A DNA stretch of 64,000 nucleotides from an uncultured virus (IMG/VR IMGVR_UViG_3300037189_025323). Lineage: Duplodnaviria > Heunggongvirae > Uroviricota > Caudoviricetes. A program made the position numbers and the translations under genes. Below, piece after piece: positions 51,566-59,869 of the stretch. Under the pieces are notes generated by a model. That model did no database searches, was not told the origin of the DNA, and saw only the letters and a list, made by a program, of their open reading frames with translations. Numbering within the stretch: position 1 is the first letter of the stretch; each line of letters opens with the position of its first letter. Location: positions 1 to 64,000 of the IMG/VR virus record IMGVR_UViG_3300037189_025323, one strand, 5' to 3'.

Positions 51566-52482
51566 ACATCTTTGAGAATACTAACAAACCTAAATGTAAT
51601 AAAATACTTCTCCAATTCTTTCGGATCATAAGTTTTCAAAACCCTAGGCTTTGGAACATAAGGAAGAATATCCATTTGTTTCAATGATTTGGCTAGCATC
51701 ACTCTTGGAATACTATCCAAAAGAACCTGTTCCTTTTTGGATTTTTTAGGCTTAGCCTTAATGGCTTCAATTATGTTTTCCAAACTGCCATGCTCACGAA
51801 CATACTTACAAGAAGTTACAGGACCCCATCCCTCACAACCAAAAATATTATCCTTGGTTGGTCCCTGTTCCCCCTCCAAGGCACCAAGATCAACCCAAAG
51901 ACTTGGATCAAATTGAAACTCAAGCTTGAATCTCTCTTTGGTCCAACGCTCTTGTTTCATGGCATCATAAACAATAACATTGTCATCTATAACCTGCATA
52001 AAATCATGATCTGAAGAAACAATAACAGTGTCTCCTCCATTTGCCTGATTTTGTTTTGCATAGGTATAAATAACATCATCACCTTCTGCCCCATCAATGC
52101 CAACCTGAAGACACCTGACAAGGTTCAAAGCATCCTTCATCTCATCCATTTGCTCATGAATTTCTTCAAGGATTTGAGCCTTGTCAGGGTCTTGAGCCGA
52201 AAGCTCAGCCGTGCTTCTCCGATTGGCTTTGTAAGCAGAAGGAATCAACCCCGCTTCAACAGCCTTAGTGGATTCATCTAGTCGGCGTTGATATCCTCTA
52301 TCCCAAGCAATAACCCGAAAGTGATCAGGAAACTCCTTGTGTAAGGAAATCAAAGCCCTAAAGAATCCATACAACAACCCCGTACATCTTCCATTATAAC
52401 TAAGCTCCTTATGAGCCCAATAAGAACGATGGCTAAGGTTGTTCCCATCAATCAAGAGAAGCTTTGGCTTACCATCAGGCAT
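51547..52482 (-). CDS. 5'-3' exonuclease / flap endonuclease
   Basis: LLIDGNNL, YKANR, EGDDVI, SSDHDF.Q and DNI.G..GWGP motifs. Confidence 0.9.
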   Translation of the reverse strand: MPDGKPKLLLIDGNNLSHRSYWAHKELSYNGRCTGLLYGFFRALISLHKEFPDHFRVIAWDRGYQRRLDESTKAVEAGLIPSAYKANRRSTAELSAQDPDKAQILEEIHEQMDEMKDALNLVRCLQVGIDGAEGDDVIYTYAKQNQANGGDTVIVSSDHDFMQVIDDNVIVYDAMKQERWTKERFKLEFQFDPSLWVDLGALEGEQGPTKDNIFGCEGWGPVTSCKYVREHGSLENIIEAIKAKPKKSKKEQVLLDSIPRVMLAKSLKQMDILPYVPKPRVLKTYDPKELEKYFITFRFVSILKDVWRLIK

Positions 52483-53650
52483 CTTGTTCCTCCACCAATT
52501 CCGCATCTACTTGTTTAACGCTACCATCGGGAAGAGCCTCCTCTAAAGAAGTCACAGGGGTTCTCTTAATCATCCCCTTTGGCTTTTTGATAGCAACAGC
52601 AGATTCCCCTTCCTCTGCCTCCAAAGCATCTACCGGATCTTTAGGAGCATTTTTTACAGCCTCCTCCAATTCTGCAAAGAATTGTGGGGTTTTCTTAGCA
52701 AAATCAATGAAGTCTTTTCTGCCTGCTCCAACAACTTGATCCTTATAAGAGATTTTTGCCCCTCTCTTTGTAACAACCTTAATCGCAATTGCCTTATCGC
52801 AAATAGCAGCAACCCGATCAATTCCTGTTCCAAAGGAAATGTAGAAGATAGCCTTCTTGAAAGGAGCAGCAGTCTTGTTCTTCTTTACATCTGCCTGAAC
52901 CTTGCTCCCAACAATAATCTCTCCATCCTTCTCTTTTGAAATAGAAGAGATATTCACCCGAATAGAAGCGTAATGGCGCAAGGCTCTACCACCGGGAGTT
53001 GTTGTTTTATCCCCATACATGACACCAATCTTTTCACGCATCTGATTGGTCCAAAAGATAGTAGTACCCCGCTTACCAGCCTCAGCGCAAAGAATTCGCA
53101 TTGTTTGAGACATCAAGCGAGCTTGTTGCCCAACATGTTGATCGCCAATGTCACCATCAAGCTCAGCCTGAGGAGTCAAAGCAGCAACCGAATCGACAAT
53201 GATAAGACCAACCCCAAGCTGAATCAAATGACGAACAACCTTAAGAGCCTGTTCACCACTTTCAGGCTGATTCACAAGAAGCAAATCAGTATCTACACCC
53301 AAATTCCTAGCATACTCTTCATCAAATGAAAACTCAGTGTCAACCAAAGCAACATCTTCATCCGGAGCATCTTTTTGGAACTCAGCGATAGCATGCAAGC
53401 AGGTAGTGGATTTACCGCCAGATTCAGGCCCAAAAAGTTCAATAAACCTCCCCTTTGGCCAACCTCCTCCCAATGCAGAATCCAATTCGGGACAACCAGA
53501 AGAAAAACGAGCAATAGGAATAGTATCACCAGAACCCAAAAAGGTAATAATATCCTGGGCTTTTTCAGCCTTCTTAATCGTATCACAAATCTTCCGCAAC
53601 CGTTCAAACCGCTTTTGCCGATCAGGAGTCATCTGAATATTTGAAGCCAT
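52475..53650 (-). CDS. recA: RecA recombinase
   Basis: GPESGGKST, VDSVAAL, QARLMSQ, NQMREKIGVMYG, GGRAL.HYAS.R and KNK motifs. Start MASNIQ at 53650. Confidence 0.95.
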   Translation of the reverse strand: MASNIQMTPDRQKRFERLRKICDTIKKAEKAQDIITFLGSGDTIPIARFSSGCPELDSALGGGWPKGRFIELFGPESGGKSTTCLHAIAEFQKDAPDEDVALVDTEFSFDEEYARNLGVDTDLLLVNQPESGEQALKVVRHLIQLGVGLIIVDSVAALTPQAELDGDIGDQHVGQQARLMSQTMRILCAEAGKRGTTIFWTNQMREKIGVMYGDKTTTPGGRALRHYASIRVNISSISKEKDGEIIVGSKVQADVKKNKTAAPFKKAIFYISFGTGIDRVAAICDKAIAIKVVTKRGAKISYKDQVVGAGRKDFIDFAKKTPQFFAELEEAVKNAPKDPVDALEAEEGESAVAIKKPKGMIKRTPVTSLEEALPDGSVKQVDAELVEEQDA

Positions 53651-53663
53651 AAACCACTCTCCT

Positions 53664-53692
53664 AAAAAAGGGGATGGACAATCCATCCCCCG
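53664..53692 (-). terminator. Rho-independent terminator
   Basis: GGGATGGA-TTG-TCCATCCC followed by TTTTTT. Confidence 0.7.
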
Positions 53693-53706: not shown

Positions 53707-53994
53707 TCAACCGCCTTTTTTCTGCTCGCACTTAACTGCAAATGGGCATTCTTTGCATTCATGACTCTTCTTGTCATAAGTCCCAAAACATTCCCAGTCT
53801 TTTTCAGGATCAATGTTTGAGAAATCAAGAGCCGATTTCGAGCTAGCAGAAGACTCTGACTTTAGAACCGGAATCTCTTTCTCCGGTTCTGGCTGGGAAA
53901 CAGGAGCCGAAACTGGCTTAACAGGCTTAGATTCTACAGGAGCAACCTGAGACTGCCTTGACGGTTCCGGCTTTTTCTCCTGAACCTCAGTTAC
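53707..53994 (-). CDS. -1 frame extension of the SSB gene (95 codons, Pro-rich linker + Cys4 module)
   Basis: Open frame with no ATG, entered from the A9G run. Reads VTEVQEKKPEPS...DWECFGTYDKKSHECKECPFAVKCEQKKGG*. Confidence 0.75.
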   Translation of the reverse strand, partial: VTEVQEKKPEPSRQSQVAPVESKPVKPVSAPVSQPEPEKEIPVLKSESSASSKSALDFSNIDPEKDWECFGTYDKKSHECKECPFAVKCEQKKGG

Positions 53995-54992
53995 TTTTTT
54001 TTTACACCCGAAGAACCACCAATTGCATCCTCATCCTCATCACCAAGAGCATCATCTTGCTCTTCCTCTTCAGCCATCTTCCGGGGAATCTTCCCAGCAG
54101 ACTTAGGAGGAGTAGCAGGAGCAGCTTCCTCCTCTCCAGAATTCAGATCCAGCAACTCCCGAAGATCAGGATGGAGTGCATCCATAAGCAAATCAAAAGC
54201 TGTTTGCTTACCACAAATGGTCTTCAAATCATGGAGATCCCAAGAACGCTCTTCAGCAGTCAAAGGAGTAACCTTGACGGAAAGAGGCTTCCCAAACAAT
54301 ACAGCCTTAGCTGCATAAGTAGTCTTAGCCCCACTCCCCTTGGTAACACAGATATCAATGCCTTCATCAGTATCAGTGATATCAAAACCACACTGATTGA
54401 AGACACCTTCGATATCACGCCACAATTCCTTTCCAACCGTAGCAATCTTCAAACCAGGGACCTTGATTTCGTTCCCATTATCAACCTTGATGATATACGG
54501 GTCATCACGATCAATAATGTTCCACTTCAAAGCAACACGAGCATAAGAAGCCTGCTTAAGAGCCTCAAAGAACTTCTTCTCTTCAGCGTTGGGGTTCTCC
54601 TTAAGAGCCTGTTTTGCCAAAGCAGAAAGCTTGCAGAAGGGGCAAGTACGATCCTTCTTCATTTCTTCCTTGGCAATGTCCCAATCAAGGCAATTCACCG
54701 TAGCGGGAATCTTCCCTTCACCCTGAAAAGACTTGCCTTGGCACAGCCCACGTTCCCCACGTTTCGGATTGGGACAAACATAGTGAGTATGAACCTCAGT
54801 CATTTCCCCAACCAGACGGACAATGTTATCAGCATCTTTCCAAGAATGGAAGATACCCCGGAAAGAACTGAAGTTAGTCCGAACCGGTTCCCGTTCCTTC
54901 ATCCGACGAATCTTGTCCAGTACGCTACTCATGACGCTACTCCCTTGTTTGCCTTTTTTTACCTTGGCATTAGCCTTGAAGTTTTTCCTCAT
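53991..54992 (-). CDS. gp32-like single-stranded DNA-binding protein
   Basis: CPFC, WNIIDR and DITD.DEG.DI.VTKGSG..T.Y motifs with an acidic tail. Lies between the UvsY-like gene and recA. Confidence 0.7.
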   Translation of the reverse strand: MRKNFKANAKVKKGKQGSSVMSSVLDKIRRMKEREPVRTNFSSFRGIFHSWKDADNIVRLVGEMTEVHTHYVCPNPKRGERGLCQGKSFQGEGKIPATVNCLDWDIAKEEMKKDRTCPFCKLSALAKQALKENPNAEEKKFFEALKQASYARVALKWNIIDRDDPYIIKVDNGNEIKVPGLKIATVGKELWRDIEGVFNQCGFDITDTDEGIDICVTKGSGAKTTYAAKAVLFGKPLSVKVTPLTAEERSWDLHDLKTICGKQTAFDLLMDALHPDLRELLDLNSGEEEAAPATPPKSAGKIPRKMAEEEEQDDALGDEDEDAIGGSSGVKKK

Positions 54993-55620
54993 GCCTTTGC
55001 CTAATCACAGATTTAACCCTACTAACACTGCTTGTCATCGAACCCGTATTCCTTGCCTTTTCCTCAGACAAAGAGGAATTAGAGTTATAGTTTTCCATGT
55101 TGTTTAAATTGGCATATTCACGGATCGTAAAGGATTTTTGCCTCCAAGCCTCAAGATATGAATCCATCGTATCATAATCAAATTGAGCTTCCTCAATCCG
55201 CCTTTCCCAATCCTCAATCTGAATCTCATTATCAACGATGAATCTTGCCTCAATATCTGCTACGGTGGTTTTCCCGGTTCCAGCACCAAGACTAGCCTTA
55301 GCTTCTGCATATTTCTTCTTAGACCAACGATCATAAGCCTTCTTTAAATTACTCAACTGCCTACTAGCTTCCTTCTTCACTGCACCATAATAAGCAATTG
55401 CGTTTGGTTGCATAATAACATGCATATCCAAATCAAGCTTACTAACGTCAAGAAGATCTGGACCTGCATCCTCAAGACGAATCCCACAAATGTCTTGCTG
55501 GCCTAATTTCATAGACATTTCAGCAATATTTTGAATCACAGCCATTGTCATAAAAACTCCTTTACTGATTCGACTTAATCTGATTTTCCAAAATCTGAAC
55601 TTCCTTCCTGAACTCTGCAA
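54970..55620 (-). CDS. UvsY-like recombination mediator
   Basis: QP..IAYYG, TVADIEA and LEAWRQKSF.IRE helical pattern, in SSB/RecA context. True start probably near 55551. Confidence 0.55.
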   Translation of the reverse strand: MQSSGRKFRFWKIRLSRISKGVFMTMAVIQNIAEMSMKLGQQDICGIRLEDAGPDLLDVSKLDLDMHVIMQPNAIAYYGAVKKEASRQLSNLKKAYDRWSKKKYAEAKASLGAGTGKTTVADIEARFIVDNEIQIEDWERRIEEAQFDYDTMDSYLEAWRQKSFTIREYANLNNMENYNSNSSLSEEKARNTGSMTSSVSRVKSVIRQRHEEKLQG

Positions 55621-58209: not shown

Positions 58210-59127
58210 TTATAAATTTACACCCGCACCCAAAGTGCTTGTTGAGACCAAAATATCCAATCCAGATCTTGGATCAGAAAAAGCTTTTTCTATTTTGTTT
58301 CTTAAAGCAAATGACAAAGAAGCATTATGGAAAGCAGATCTAAAACCGGAAGATTTCAACCTCTTGCATATATCAGCACCAAGAACCTTTGAATGAACAA
58401 AAATAATGATCTTCCCTTCATTATTAGAAGCAAGCTCAACAGCCTTATCTATCTTATCCTGATATCCATCCTCTACCACATGAATTTCAGTAGTAATAGC
58501 TGTTGGTCTCCAACTACTAGTAAAACATTTCGTTGTTTTACCATTCAGCTTCTTCAACCACTTCGCCAAATCTATAGCATTACCCAGCGTAGCAGAAAGA
58601 AGAATAATCCTCGCTTGAGGATTTATCTTGGTTATTCTCATCAATGATGTCTCTATCGAACCATTTCTTTCCCCCATGATATGAGCCTCATCAACTACAA
58701 CACAAGTAATTGAATTGACCCAATCCCGGTACCGACTTCCCCGAACCTTTGAATCAAAAGACTCTGAGGTTACAATCGACAATCTCCCCTGTATGAATTC
58801 CTCAGGAGTAGTTCCATGGTCACTAGTGCTAATAACCACAGAGTACTTAGACAATTGATCGTTCGCTTTCCAAGCCTTAAACTTTTCCTCACTAAGGCTA
58901 CGGAAAGGACAGACAAAGACAACCCTAGCCGAATCATTTTGACTTAAGTGATAAGCAAAAGCACATTCGGCTAAGACTGTCTTCCCTGTTGCTGTTCCAA
59001 ATGCTGCAACCACGTTCATATCTTTATCAATGAACGGAATTACAGCACTTTGGACCGGATTATATTCCGGAAAAGGAGGCTGATAATAAGGAAAGTCAAT
59101 CGTATACATATTAGAGAACAGCGTCAA
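58210..59127 (-). CDS. Ski2/Hel308-like helicase, N-terminal part
   Basis: Q motif, TATGKT, DEAH, LSAT, IIFVHS and FHNA motifs. Ends STSTLGAGVNL*. Confidence 0.9.
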   Translation of the reverse strand: MTLFSNMYTIDFPYYQPPFPEYNPVQSAVIPFIDKDMNVVAAFGTATGKTVLAECAFAYHLSQNDSARVVFVCPFRSLSEEKFKAWKANDQLSKYSVVISTSDHGTTPEEFIQGRLSIVTSESFDSKVRGSRYRDWVNSITCVVVDEAHIMGERNGSIETSLMRITKINPQARIILLSATLGNAIDLAKWLKKLNGKTTKCFTSSWRPTAITTEIHVVEDGYQDKIDKAVELASNNEGKIIIFVHSKVLGADICKRLKSSGFRSAFHNASLSFALRNKIEKAFSDPRSGLDILVSTSTLGAGVNL

Positions 59128-59869
59128 AGATTTCTTGAATCTTCTTGGTCTTCTCTTGATACGAAAGCCTTTCTTTCGTTGGCTTCCCTCCCTTTACCTT
59201 CACTGTCTTAAAATAAGAAAACTCCTTCTTAACCCCGTCCTTATTCATGAAAACAGCATCACCAGATGCCTTTTGAAGGACAACCTGCAAACCCTTATCC
59301 TCTCCATAAATGAAGAGATAGACATCAGAACCAAACCCACCCTTAACATTCGGCTCTACTCCAAGCTTTTCCTTCAACATGTTAATGATAGGAAGCTGAT
59401 CCAAATCATCCTTCTGAGGCTCCACAACCAACACAGGAGCAACTTCCGGGACAATCGCAAGAACCTTTGGCTCTTCCTTTTTTACCTCAATCTTAATTTC
59501 TTCAACAGGAACATCCTCTTCCTGTTTTTTCACAACCTCAACATCAGCCGTCCTAACAGGAGTCGCCAAAATTTCTGGCTTAACCACTTTCTTATGGACA
59601 GGAGAAGAGGACGCAACACACCCAGAAGCAACAACAGGAGCCACAGGAGTAGCAATAACCACAGGAGCAGGAGTAACTGTAGCTACCGGCTTTGCCTTAG
59701 CAGGAGAAGCCTGTAGCGTGTTAATATTGACAGTAGCCTCCAGACACGCTTGGAAAACCAAGCACTGTGAGCATTCCTTGGCTTTCTTATCAAAATGTCC
59801 CCAGCAAGTAGCCGAATGATGAACCTTTGCTCCAGCAACAACACTCTTCTCAGCCTCTTCCGTTCCCAT
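59111..59869 (-). CDS. Protein with N-terminal Cys4 module and Pro/Val/Ala-rich linker
   Basis: CWGHFDKKAKECSQCLVFQAC motif. Confidence 0.7.
   Translation of the reverse strand: MGTEEAEKSVVAGAKVHHSATCWGHFDKKAKECSQCLVFQACLEATVNINTLQASPAKAKPVATVTPAPVVIATPVAPVVASGCVASSSPVHKKVVKPEILATPVRTADVEVVKKQEEDVPVEEIKIEVKKEEPKVLAIVPEVAPVLVVEPQKDDLDQLPIINMLKEKLGVEPNVKGGFGSDVYLFIYGEDKGLQVVLQKASGDAVFMNKDGVKKEFSYFKTVKVKGGKPTKERLSYQEKTKKIQEIFDAVL

Follow-up and report, generated by a model that had tools for sequence, protein, structure and literature searches.

The end of the SSB gene and its -1 frame

The window, by which we mean the whole 64,000-nucleotide (nt) stretch of DNA analysed here (IMG/VR record IMGVR_UViG_3300037189_025323), is a fragment of a phage, and its minus strand encodes a single-stranded DNA-binding protein (SSB) whose gene ends in GGT GTA AAA AAA AAG TAA (Table 1). 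An earlier note on this DNA, made from the letters alone, had described this ending with its A9G run, and a direct reading of the sequence agrees. The run holds two overlapping heptamers of the form X_XXY_YYZ in the phase of the 0 frame, A_AAA_AAA and A_AAA_AAG, and is directly abutted by the 0-frame stop. Entered at the run, the -1 frame begins KKK VTEVQEKKPEPS (the same start also being given as VTEVQEKKPEPSRQSQ), stays open for 95 codons past KKK and ends DWECFGTYDKKSHECKECPFAVKCEQKKGG (the same end also being given as DFSNIDPEKDWECFGTYDKKSHECKECPFAVKCEQKKGG) before a TGA, which predicts products of 333 and 428 amino acids. The +1 frame, for its part, closes within 4 codons of the run (KKSN, then a stop). 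The absence of ATG from the 95-codon frame, also claimed in that note, was verified, and its 66 codons ahead of the cysteine module contain no GTG or TTG either. The extension is made up of a linker rich in Pro, Glu, Lys and Ser, reachable only by shifted reading, and a terminal four-cysteine (Cys4) module with the spacing C-x10-C-x2-C-x5-C, and it stops just ahead of a terminator, again as had been noted. As to the transcription unit, this terminator-like hairpin is placed after the extension and not after the 0-frame stop, a point in favour of the decoding proposed below.

Table 1. Positions of the SSB gene, its recoding features and the neighbouring genes in the window
Feature	Positions	Strand	Basis or remark
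Upstream neighbour, function not assigned, 216 amino acids as listed	54970..55620	-	homology from about residue 24
SSB gene, 0 frame (333 amino acids + TAA)	53991..54992	-	open reading frame list, PHROG 1192, AlphaFold2/Foldseek
Slippery site A9G	53994..54003	-	A9 = 54003..53995, G = 53994
In-phase heptamer A_AAA_AAA	54003..53997	-	overlaps the next heptamer
In-phase heptamer A_AAA_AAG	54000..53994	-
0-frame stop TAA	53993..53991	-	directly abuts A9G
Imperfect stem-loop GGUUC.GG/CC.GAACC	53959..53989	-	starts 4 nt past the heptamer; -14.9 kcal/mol
Pro/Glu/Lys/Ser-rich linker, -1 frame, 52 codons	53839..53994	-	translation; no start codon
Cys4 module, -1 frame, 43 amino acids, KSALDFSNIDPEKDWECFGTYDKKSHECKECPFAVKCEQKKGG	53710..53838	-	alignment, profile, AlphaFold2
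Stop TGA of the -1 extension	53707..53709	-	sequence and translation
Terminator-like hairpin, 10-pair stem + T-tail	53669..53691	-	16 nt past the -1 stop
RecA gene	52475..53650	-	Pfam RecA, E 1.1e-83; likely true start ATG 53650 after AGGAG
RecA open reading frame as listed	52475..53686	-	start ATG 53686 falls within the terminator hairpin
P0244, 252 amino acids, second module carrier in the replication cluster	59111..59869	-	module profile E 1.1e-5, own-genome search
Module of P0244, residues about 22-46	59732..59806	-	N-terminal

Counted on both strands, A9 occurs once in the window, against 11.0 +/- 5.0 expected from 100 dinucleotide-preserving shuffles, all of which (100/100) contained at least one such run. 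A7 occurs 35 times against an expected 79.9 +/- 14, so that A/T homopolymers are strongly depleted. The same A9 is found in a 180,758-base-pair IMG/VR contig whose SSB gene is 100% identical and in a Logan contig of run X1 with 0 differences; the two copies possibly come from one sample and are thus not independent. The observation at the end of the SSB gene is confirmed as real.

The 0-frame product matches PHROG 1192, 'single strand DNA binding protein', at E 2.9e-11. No Pfam family, PF08804 (gp32) included, matched the window's SSB at threshold, and PF08804 was matched by 1 of 31 members of the SSB family (E 3.2e-6). An AlphaFold2 (AF2) model computed with 31 relatives as input (mean predicted local distance difference test (pLDDT) score 83.9, residues 297-333 below 50) has a gp32-like core followed by a disordered acidic C-terminal tail ending ..DEDEDAIGGSSGVKKK. 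Given that its six best Foldseek matches are all gp32 of T4 or RB69 (chains of 1gpc, 2a1k, 2atq and 8gme; E 1.3e-5 to 2.1e-3, probability 0.99-1.00) and that the next match lies at E 0.016 and probability 0.12, the model identifies the protein as an SSB of the gp32 type that has diverged strongly and bears the usual acidic tail. It shares the core fold and the disordered tail with T4 and RB69 gp32 and differs from them in being only 10-16% identical in structural alignments; the SSB profile had no match among PDB sequences at E up to 1. Residues H70, C101, C117 and C120 are invariant across the SSB family and C84 is nearly so. The core zinc site of T4 gp32 consists of one His and three Cys, to which some of these conserved core residues may correspond. 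Recoding and a Cys4 module at the C terminus are, to our knowledge, both absent from gp32.

Conservation of the layout among SSB relatives

A protein search returned 114 homologous SSB clusters, 80 of which end in KK followed by 0-2 residues. The Cys module is in frame in 11 clusters (3 of these also end KK), a tail of the ..LPF type is found in 8, among the most distant ones, and 18 have other endings, many of them ..EKN, ..VKN or ..PKA. A tblastn search with the SSB found no relative in 50,697 deposited phage genomes, nor did a scan of a prokaryote genome contig collection find any SSB relative. The 100 loci with DNA (20 from IMG/VR and 80 from metagenomes; L numbers below) were classified by script. 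Left out were 16 duplicates, 13 loci ending before the SSB stop and 2 without the anchoring motif, one of the latter being an outlier with 24% identity, and 69 informative loci remained. The module lies in the -1 frame in 42 of the 69, among them the window's own copy (L002), and is fused in frame in 17. In another 6 loci, the -1 frame is still open at the contig end (5 have A9-A10; L094 has only A_AAG_GGT). The module is in the +1 frame in L050 and L072, and 2 loci were classed as 'none': L049, with a -1 layout and a stop inside the module, and L098, with a ..DIELPF tail and no module. The overlap of the SSB frame with the -1 frame ranges from 10 to 199 nt, the -1 frame being always open upstream of the SSB stop. 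The earlier note had proposed to look in homologues for the loss of both the A-run and the -1 domain; both are kept, and their retention supports its core reading, that is, a -1 shift at the A-run that yields a short and a Cys4-bearing long SSB.

A homopolymer error in sequencing or assembly, hiding a true A10 and one continuous 428-amino acid reading frame, has in its favour that such runs are error-prone and that one relative, L054, is fused through A10. Yet the -1 layout recurs in 41 further unique loci drawn from many samples, with runs of 6-10 or with other heptamers, and duplicate contigs, which represent one phage in different assemblies, agree over the 400 nt compared (L052/L053, L007/L043, L014/L078 and L020/L047). 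The 0-frame stop, moreover, lies 0-4 nt past the run in 35 of the 37 loci with an A-run, a regularity that random errors would not produce, and the two assemblies of the window's phage, possibly from one sample, concur on A9. We regard such an error as very improbable.

A maximum-likelihood tree of 62 SSB cores from a quick search was drawn with a midpoint root for display only; on it, the -1 state requires 7 changes, compared with 17.1 when labels are shuffled, and none of 500 shuffles gave a count as low as 7. One clade unites 41 -1 forms with 4 fused forms and L050, and another holds 11 fused forms, L087 and L072 (13 rows). Judging from this distribution, the -1 state is inherited over deep divergence. 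Among the 17 fused forms, a long run persists at the junction in L054 alone (A10, ..LKKKVT..), which is placed among shifted relatives with A9, and in L050, with A9 and the module in +1, one extra A would give the canonical layout. Single-base changes in the run do occur, in nature or in assembly, and the overall layout is old and maintained. The tree also bears on decay, that is, on the idea that an ancestral fusion was broken by a frameshift mutation and that the module is no longer made. Fused forms exist, they make up most of one clade (11 of 13 rows), and L049 carries a stop inside the module. However, the module with its four invariant Cys is intact in 39 shifted loci across branch lengths of up to about 1 change per site, and the break always falls at a slippery site directly before the stop, which leaves decay the least probable of the explanations considered.

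An in-phase X_XXY_YYZ heptamer lies inside the overlap in 41 of the 42 loci with a -1 module, L037 being the exception. For further analysis, L037 was dropped, as it offers nothing to anchor on, together with L028, a near-copy of L026, which leaves 40 loci. Their runs are A9 in 26, A7 in 5, A10 in 3, A8 in 2 and A6 in 1, and 3 loci have no A-run. In these three, the sites read GAG GGA AAC GCA TAA (L034, G_GGA_AAC, with an overlap of only 10 nt), ACC CCA AAA GCG TGA (L044, C_CCA_AAA) and ACC CCT TTC TAG (L068, C_CCU_UUC, overlap 13 nt). Such heptamers are classical ribosomal slip sites, unfit for polymerase stutter of the homopolymer type, and they point to ribosomal -1 frameshifting. By our arithmetic, an in-phase XXX-YYY pair arises by chance in about 1 in 256 codons, and three such matches within so short windows are very unlikely to be fortuitous.

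The A-runs themselves show selection. In the bodies of the SSB genes, Lys is encoded by AAG 837 times and by AAA 275 times (25% AAA of 1112 codons), and 17% of all codons have A in the third position; at the site, by contrast, Lys is written AAA AAA. The preceding codon is CAA in 9 of 37 loci, GAA in 8, TCA in 7, GCA in 6, GTA in 3, ATA in 3 and AAA in 1, so that its meaning varies (Q, E, S, A, V, I), yet it always ends in A. Given the rarity of AAA and the constant A before the site, selection acts on the nucleotide sequence of the run.

Translation of the -1 frame as a small separate protein, through its own initiation or through termination and reinitiation, could account for the many metagenomes in which it has been called as one (77 of 129 new matches to the module profile described below are at most 160 amino acids long), and a start codon of some kind (ATG, GTG or TTG) precedes the module in 25 of the 40 loci. 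In 15 loci, however, there is none of the three, ATG is missing ahead of the module in 36 of 40, and the window lacks all three starts over 66 codons. The opening of the -1 frame ahead of the SSB stop in every locus, the covalent fusion of module and SSB in 17 relatives and the linker, which is long, of low complexity and variable, more like a tether than the start of a protein, also speak against it. Because starts are lacking and all 56 aligned modules retain the four Cys, we do not consider the -1 open reading frame a separate gene; two genes are improbable here, though less so than an assembly error. Taken together, error, separate gene and decay fit the comparative data poorly.

At programmed -1 sites of the dnaX or G/GT type, a stimulatory RNA structure is expected about 5-9 nt downstream. 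Structure in the RNA accompanies many of the sites. The 60 nt past the heptamer have a mean folding z-score of -2.12 (n=40) as against -0.38 in control windows taken 180-420 nt upstream in the same genes (n=200; one-sided Mann-Whitney p=3.7e-6), and sites with short or non-A runs reach -3.32 (n=11), compared with -1.67 at A9-A10 sites (n=29; p=0.024). Changes on both sides of a pair were counted at 7 of 23 pairs in the sub-clade of L024, L066, L025 and L044, where the stem lies 8 nt past the heptamer, at 9 of 22 pairs in L009, L041, L042, L011, L014, L040 and L063, and at 5 of 11 pairs in L004, L005, L030 and L067, with the stem at 6 nt, an indication that hairpins are kept by compensatory changes in these three sub-clades.

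Decoding of the SSB gene

With a probability of roughly 0.85, we propose two-way decoding of this gene into a bulk form of 333 amino acids and a minority form of 428 with the Cys4 module, with -1 ribosomal frameshifting of the dnaX type as the core of this in the family. Most ribosomes would read GTA AAA AAA AAG and stop at TAA, producing an SSB that ends just past the acidic tail, and a minority of the products would arise by a -1 shift at the A-run and gain 95 codons, which encode a flexible Pro/Glu/Lys linker followed by a small module of four cysteines that presumably binds metal. Throughout the family, the core event would be a -1 ribosomal shift on an in-phase X_XXY_YYZ directly before the 0-frame stop, with a downstream hairpin probably assisting in many clades; at A9-A10, as in the window, RNA polymerase inserting one A would lead to the same protein, whose yield it probably increases. 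Recoding would likely serve to furnish a set fraction of the SSB with an extra interaction or anchoring module. From the comparison of DNA we infer the occurrence of the shift, its efficiency and its division between ribosome and polymerase, and the fixed ratio of isoforms put forward in the earlier note is presumed on the same footing.

The rival that concerns the mechanism, and only the mechanism, is transcriptional slippage as the main or sole process here: stutter on the T9 template would yield some A10 mRNA and from it the same two isoforms. Runs of A9-A10 are the commonest (29 of 40) though a heptamer needs 6-7 A's, the window's A9 reaches the homopolymer length of about nine or more associated with slippage, and the window offers neither a significant hairpin nor a Shine-Dalgarno (SD)-like stimulator. 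The avoidance of A9 elsewhere in the 64 kb (1 against 11 expected) is what error-prone runs would lead one to expect, and both the fusion of L054 through A10 and the module of L050, one base out of register beside an A9, fit stuttering. As the +1 frame, corresponding to an A8 mRNA, ends after 4 codons, every slippage product would be either the short or the long form. On the other hand, 11 of the 40 relatives have A6-A8 or no A-run, yet possess an in-phase heptamer and the strongest hairpins, the sites G_GGA_AAC, C_CCA_AAA and C_CCT_TTC are unable to support such stuttering, and the six A6-A7 runs all lie in the phase of a ribosomal shift, for which we calculate a chance of about 0.04. Ribosomal shifting is favoured family-wide because the heptamers, non-A ones included, are in phase, the stop is adjacent and the hairpins are strongest where the run is shortest. 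Slippage as the main or sole process is thus unlikely, if the most credible of the rivals; at A9-A10 sites, the window's included, it may contribute much or most of the shifted product.

Several points weigh against ribosomal frameshifting as proposed. The long form is predicted from the comparison of DNA. A9 is the modal run (26 of 40), exceeds what a heptamer needs and fits transcriptional slippage at least equally well. An SD-like upstream element is not conserved, a G-rich tetramer being found within 20 nt in 11 of 37 loci at scattered positions. The stem-loop that the earlier note had described in the window is there, but its stability is not above chance (z -0.55; 53 of 200 shuffles fold equally well or better), and the closest relative, L039, likewise has no hairpin (z +1.3), so that both fall in a part of the family without notable hairpins. 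Some loci depart from the layout: L037 has the -1 arrangement without a heptamer in its 130-nt overlap, L072 carries the module in +1 without a slippery site, L050 has it in +1 beside an A9, and L049 has a stop codon within it. Finally, the z-scores rest on mononucleotide shuffles, the covariation counts come from 4 to 7 sequences per sub-clade and are indicative only, and the tree is the result of a quick rather than a careful search.

The textbook cases of recoding in bacteria and phages are dnaX, release factor 2, insertion sequence (IS) transposases and tail assembly chaperones. In Escherichia coli, the tau and gamma products of dnaX arise through A_AAA_AAG with a downstream stem-loop and an upstream SD-like element. 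The SSB gene resembles it in having A_AAA_AAG in the same phase, in being a replication gene with two isoforms and, in many relatives, in a hairpin 6-8 nt downstream. In contrast, the dnaX shift truncates the protein, whereas in the SSB gene it is the unshifted frame that stops at once and the shift that adds a domain; a conserved SD-like stimulator is absent from the SSB loci, and the window's hairpin is not above chance. The dnaX gene of Thermus thermophilus relies on transcriptional slippage on an A9 run, and the likeness lies in an A9 within a replication gene where each alternative frame leads to a defined product; SSB relatives with A6-A8 or non-A heptamers, however, cannot work in this way. 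The G/GT -1 shift of tail assembly chaperones in double-stranded DNA phages, which occurs at G_GGA_AAG in lambda, offers a third parallel. It too takes place near the end of a phage gene, extends a minority of the molecules by a C-terminal domain and is kept by position and not by sequence in diverse phages, with varying heptamers (compare G_GGA_AAC in L034). The SSB differs from it in acting in replication and not in morphogenesis, and in what the shift appends, a Cys4 mini-domain carried by a long linker.

What is new here is recoding of the dnaX or G/GT style in a new gene family. A full-text literature search returned no description of frameshifting or recoding in a phage SSB gene, although the supplements of surveys could list cases. 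Two frameshift surveys (PMC10885494; 10.1101/2025.10.02.679949) do not mention SSB in the passages that matched, and their supplements could contain such entries. If two-way decoding of the SSB gene holds, a core replication and recombination protein joins the cases of recoding conserved family-wide.

Few recoding events that we know of are conserved over a whole gene family. The natural variety of sites (A6-A10, three further heptamers, with or without a hairpin, and fused forms as controls) could serve to separate ribosomal from polymerase slippage. Gene callers would split or truncate the SSB in most metagenomic phages, and the miscalled small open reading frames would hide a widespread four-cysteine domain. 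The layout also suggests that SSB comes in two kinds, most of it forming the bulk coat and a smaller part bearing an additional anchoring module, encoded in a cassette of upstream protein, SSB and RecA.

The Cys4 module and the replication neighbourhood

In an alignment of 56 modules (A2), the four Cys are invariant (C-x10-12-C-x2-C-x5-C) and F18, G19 and E27 are conserved at 90% or more, with the consensus [W/F/Y]xCFGxxxxxxxEC..C.....C. The A2 profile finds the module of the window at E 4.9e-18, and AF2 predicts a confident small fold for it (mean pLDDT 85.3). This fold had no Foldseek match in the PDB at E up to 10, and no chain among 48,161 reached a Z of 2 in a VIA-align comparison. The A2 profile had no match among PDB sequences at E up to 10, and the ESM Atlas returned for the module unnamed clusters only, with scores of 0.85-0.87, under the level that counts. 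In several loci the -1 extension is longer, reaching 144-226 codons in L008, L039, L045, L048, L049 and L093; in these longer forms, double zinc ribbons (Pfam DZR in P0141 and P0143) precede the terminal Cys4 module.

No Pfam family matched the 56 modules at threshold. Below it, DDE_Tnp_1_6, a Cys motif of transposases, was matched by 11 of 56 (best E 0.011) and WhiB (PF02467) by 2 of 56 (E 0.035), the best at 15.1 bits against a cut-off of 23.6. The last three Cys, C-x2-C-x5-C and often C-x2-C-P, are spaced as in the motifs of WhiB, EndoIII, Cas4 and AddB, and to this extent the likeness to EndoIII/Cas4 Fe-S motifs drawn in the earlier note stands. It does not extend further. The Fe-S loop of EndoIII is C-x6-C-x2-C-x5-C, whereas the first spacing of the module is 10-12 residues and not 6, and Pfam scans of the modules at E up to 10 returned no EndoIII family. 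With regard to the WhiB-like [4Fe-4S] proteins, the module differs in comprising only about 30 residues and in scoring under the family cut-off, and since it ends a few residues past the last Cys, it is without the WhiB turn and basic tail.

Searching 1.84 billion representatives with the A2 profile, we obtained 132 proteins at E up to 1e-3, and 129 of the matches were new. The matches of at most 160 amino acids look like the -1 open reading frame called as a separate gene, and others are fused SSBs. One to four tandem copies of the module were also found on proteins unrelated to SSB (one to three in P0124, P0142, P0165, P0174, P0195, P0220, P0206 and P0197), next to HEAT and cNMP-binding, TPR, Mrr and TPR, SAP, Prok-JAB and TatA-like domains, as assigned by Pfam on 30 of the longer matches. 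The Cys unit appears to be a small domain without a family entry. A second carrier lies in the replication cluster of the window itself. This protein, P0244, has the module near its N terminus (..TCWGHFDKKAKECSQCLVFQAC..), followed by a linker of Pro, Ala and Val and an unassigned C-terminal domain; it matched no Pfam family and had no homologue besides itself. Given its presence on the SSB, on P0244 and on unrelated proteins, the module is probably a portable interaction unit, presumably one that binds metal, be it Zn or an Fe-S cluster, or is stabilized by it.

It is conceivable, though we think it rather unlikely, that the 'CFG...C-x2-C-x5-C' unit represents a portable mini-domain not described before, which binds metal, possibly as an Fe-S cluster, and through which the long SSB and P0244 both dock on one partner or site, with recoding setting the anchored fraction. 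If so, the anchored SSB fraction might be coupled to the translational or the iron/redox state of the host, and the role of the unit would extend beyond phages, to its carriers with HEAT/cNMP-binding, TPR, Mrr-TPR, SAP, JAB and TatA-like parts.

The SSB gene lies in a block of replication and recombination genes on the minus strand, with a DnaB-like helicase, a primase, a helicase, SSB, RecA, a 5'-3' exonuclease, a thymidylate kinase, an SbcD-like nuclease and a DNA polymerase. RecA comes next after SSB in 72 of the 100 fetched loci, most of the others ending too early to tell, and the upstream neighbour had tblastn matches in 81 of 100. The three form a conserved cassette, in which a protein of about 190-216 amino acids is followed by SSB and then RecA. 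The upstream protein matched no Pfam family at threshold and no PDB sequence; it could be a candidate recombination mediator.

The C-terminal tail of RecA holds ..KGMIKRTPVTS.., and a motif (K/R)K(V/I)xRTPV lies just ahead of the slip site in the SSBs of L004 and L005 and in P0017, P0022, P0024, P0026, P0028, P0036, P0037 and P0042. A short motif of the RTPV type common to both tails may point to a shared partner. In eight loci (L068, L030, L040, L042, L060, L061, L071 and L081), the match to RecA ends after about 95 residues; the sequence past this break in L068 (L068:2707-3807) reads ..DTEFCLASGTLVYD.., and the insertion looks like an intein in RecA. No tRNA genes were found within the 64-kb window. 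All genes annotated by PHROG or Pfam at 43-64 kb are on the minus strand, and the GC skew is negative across the whole window.

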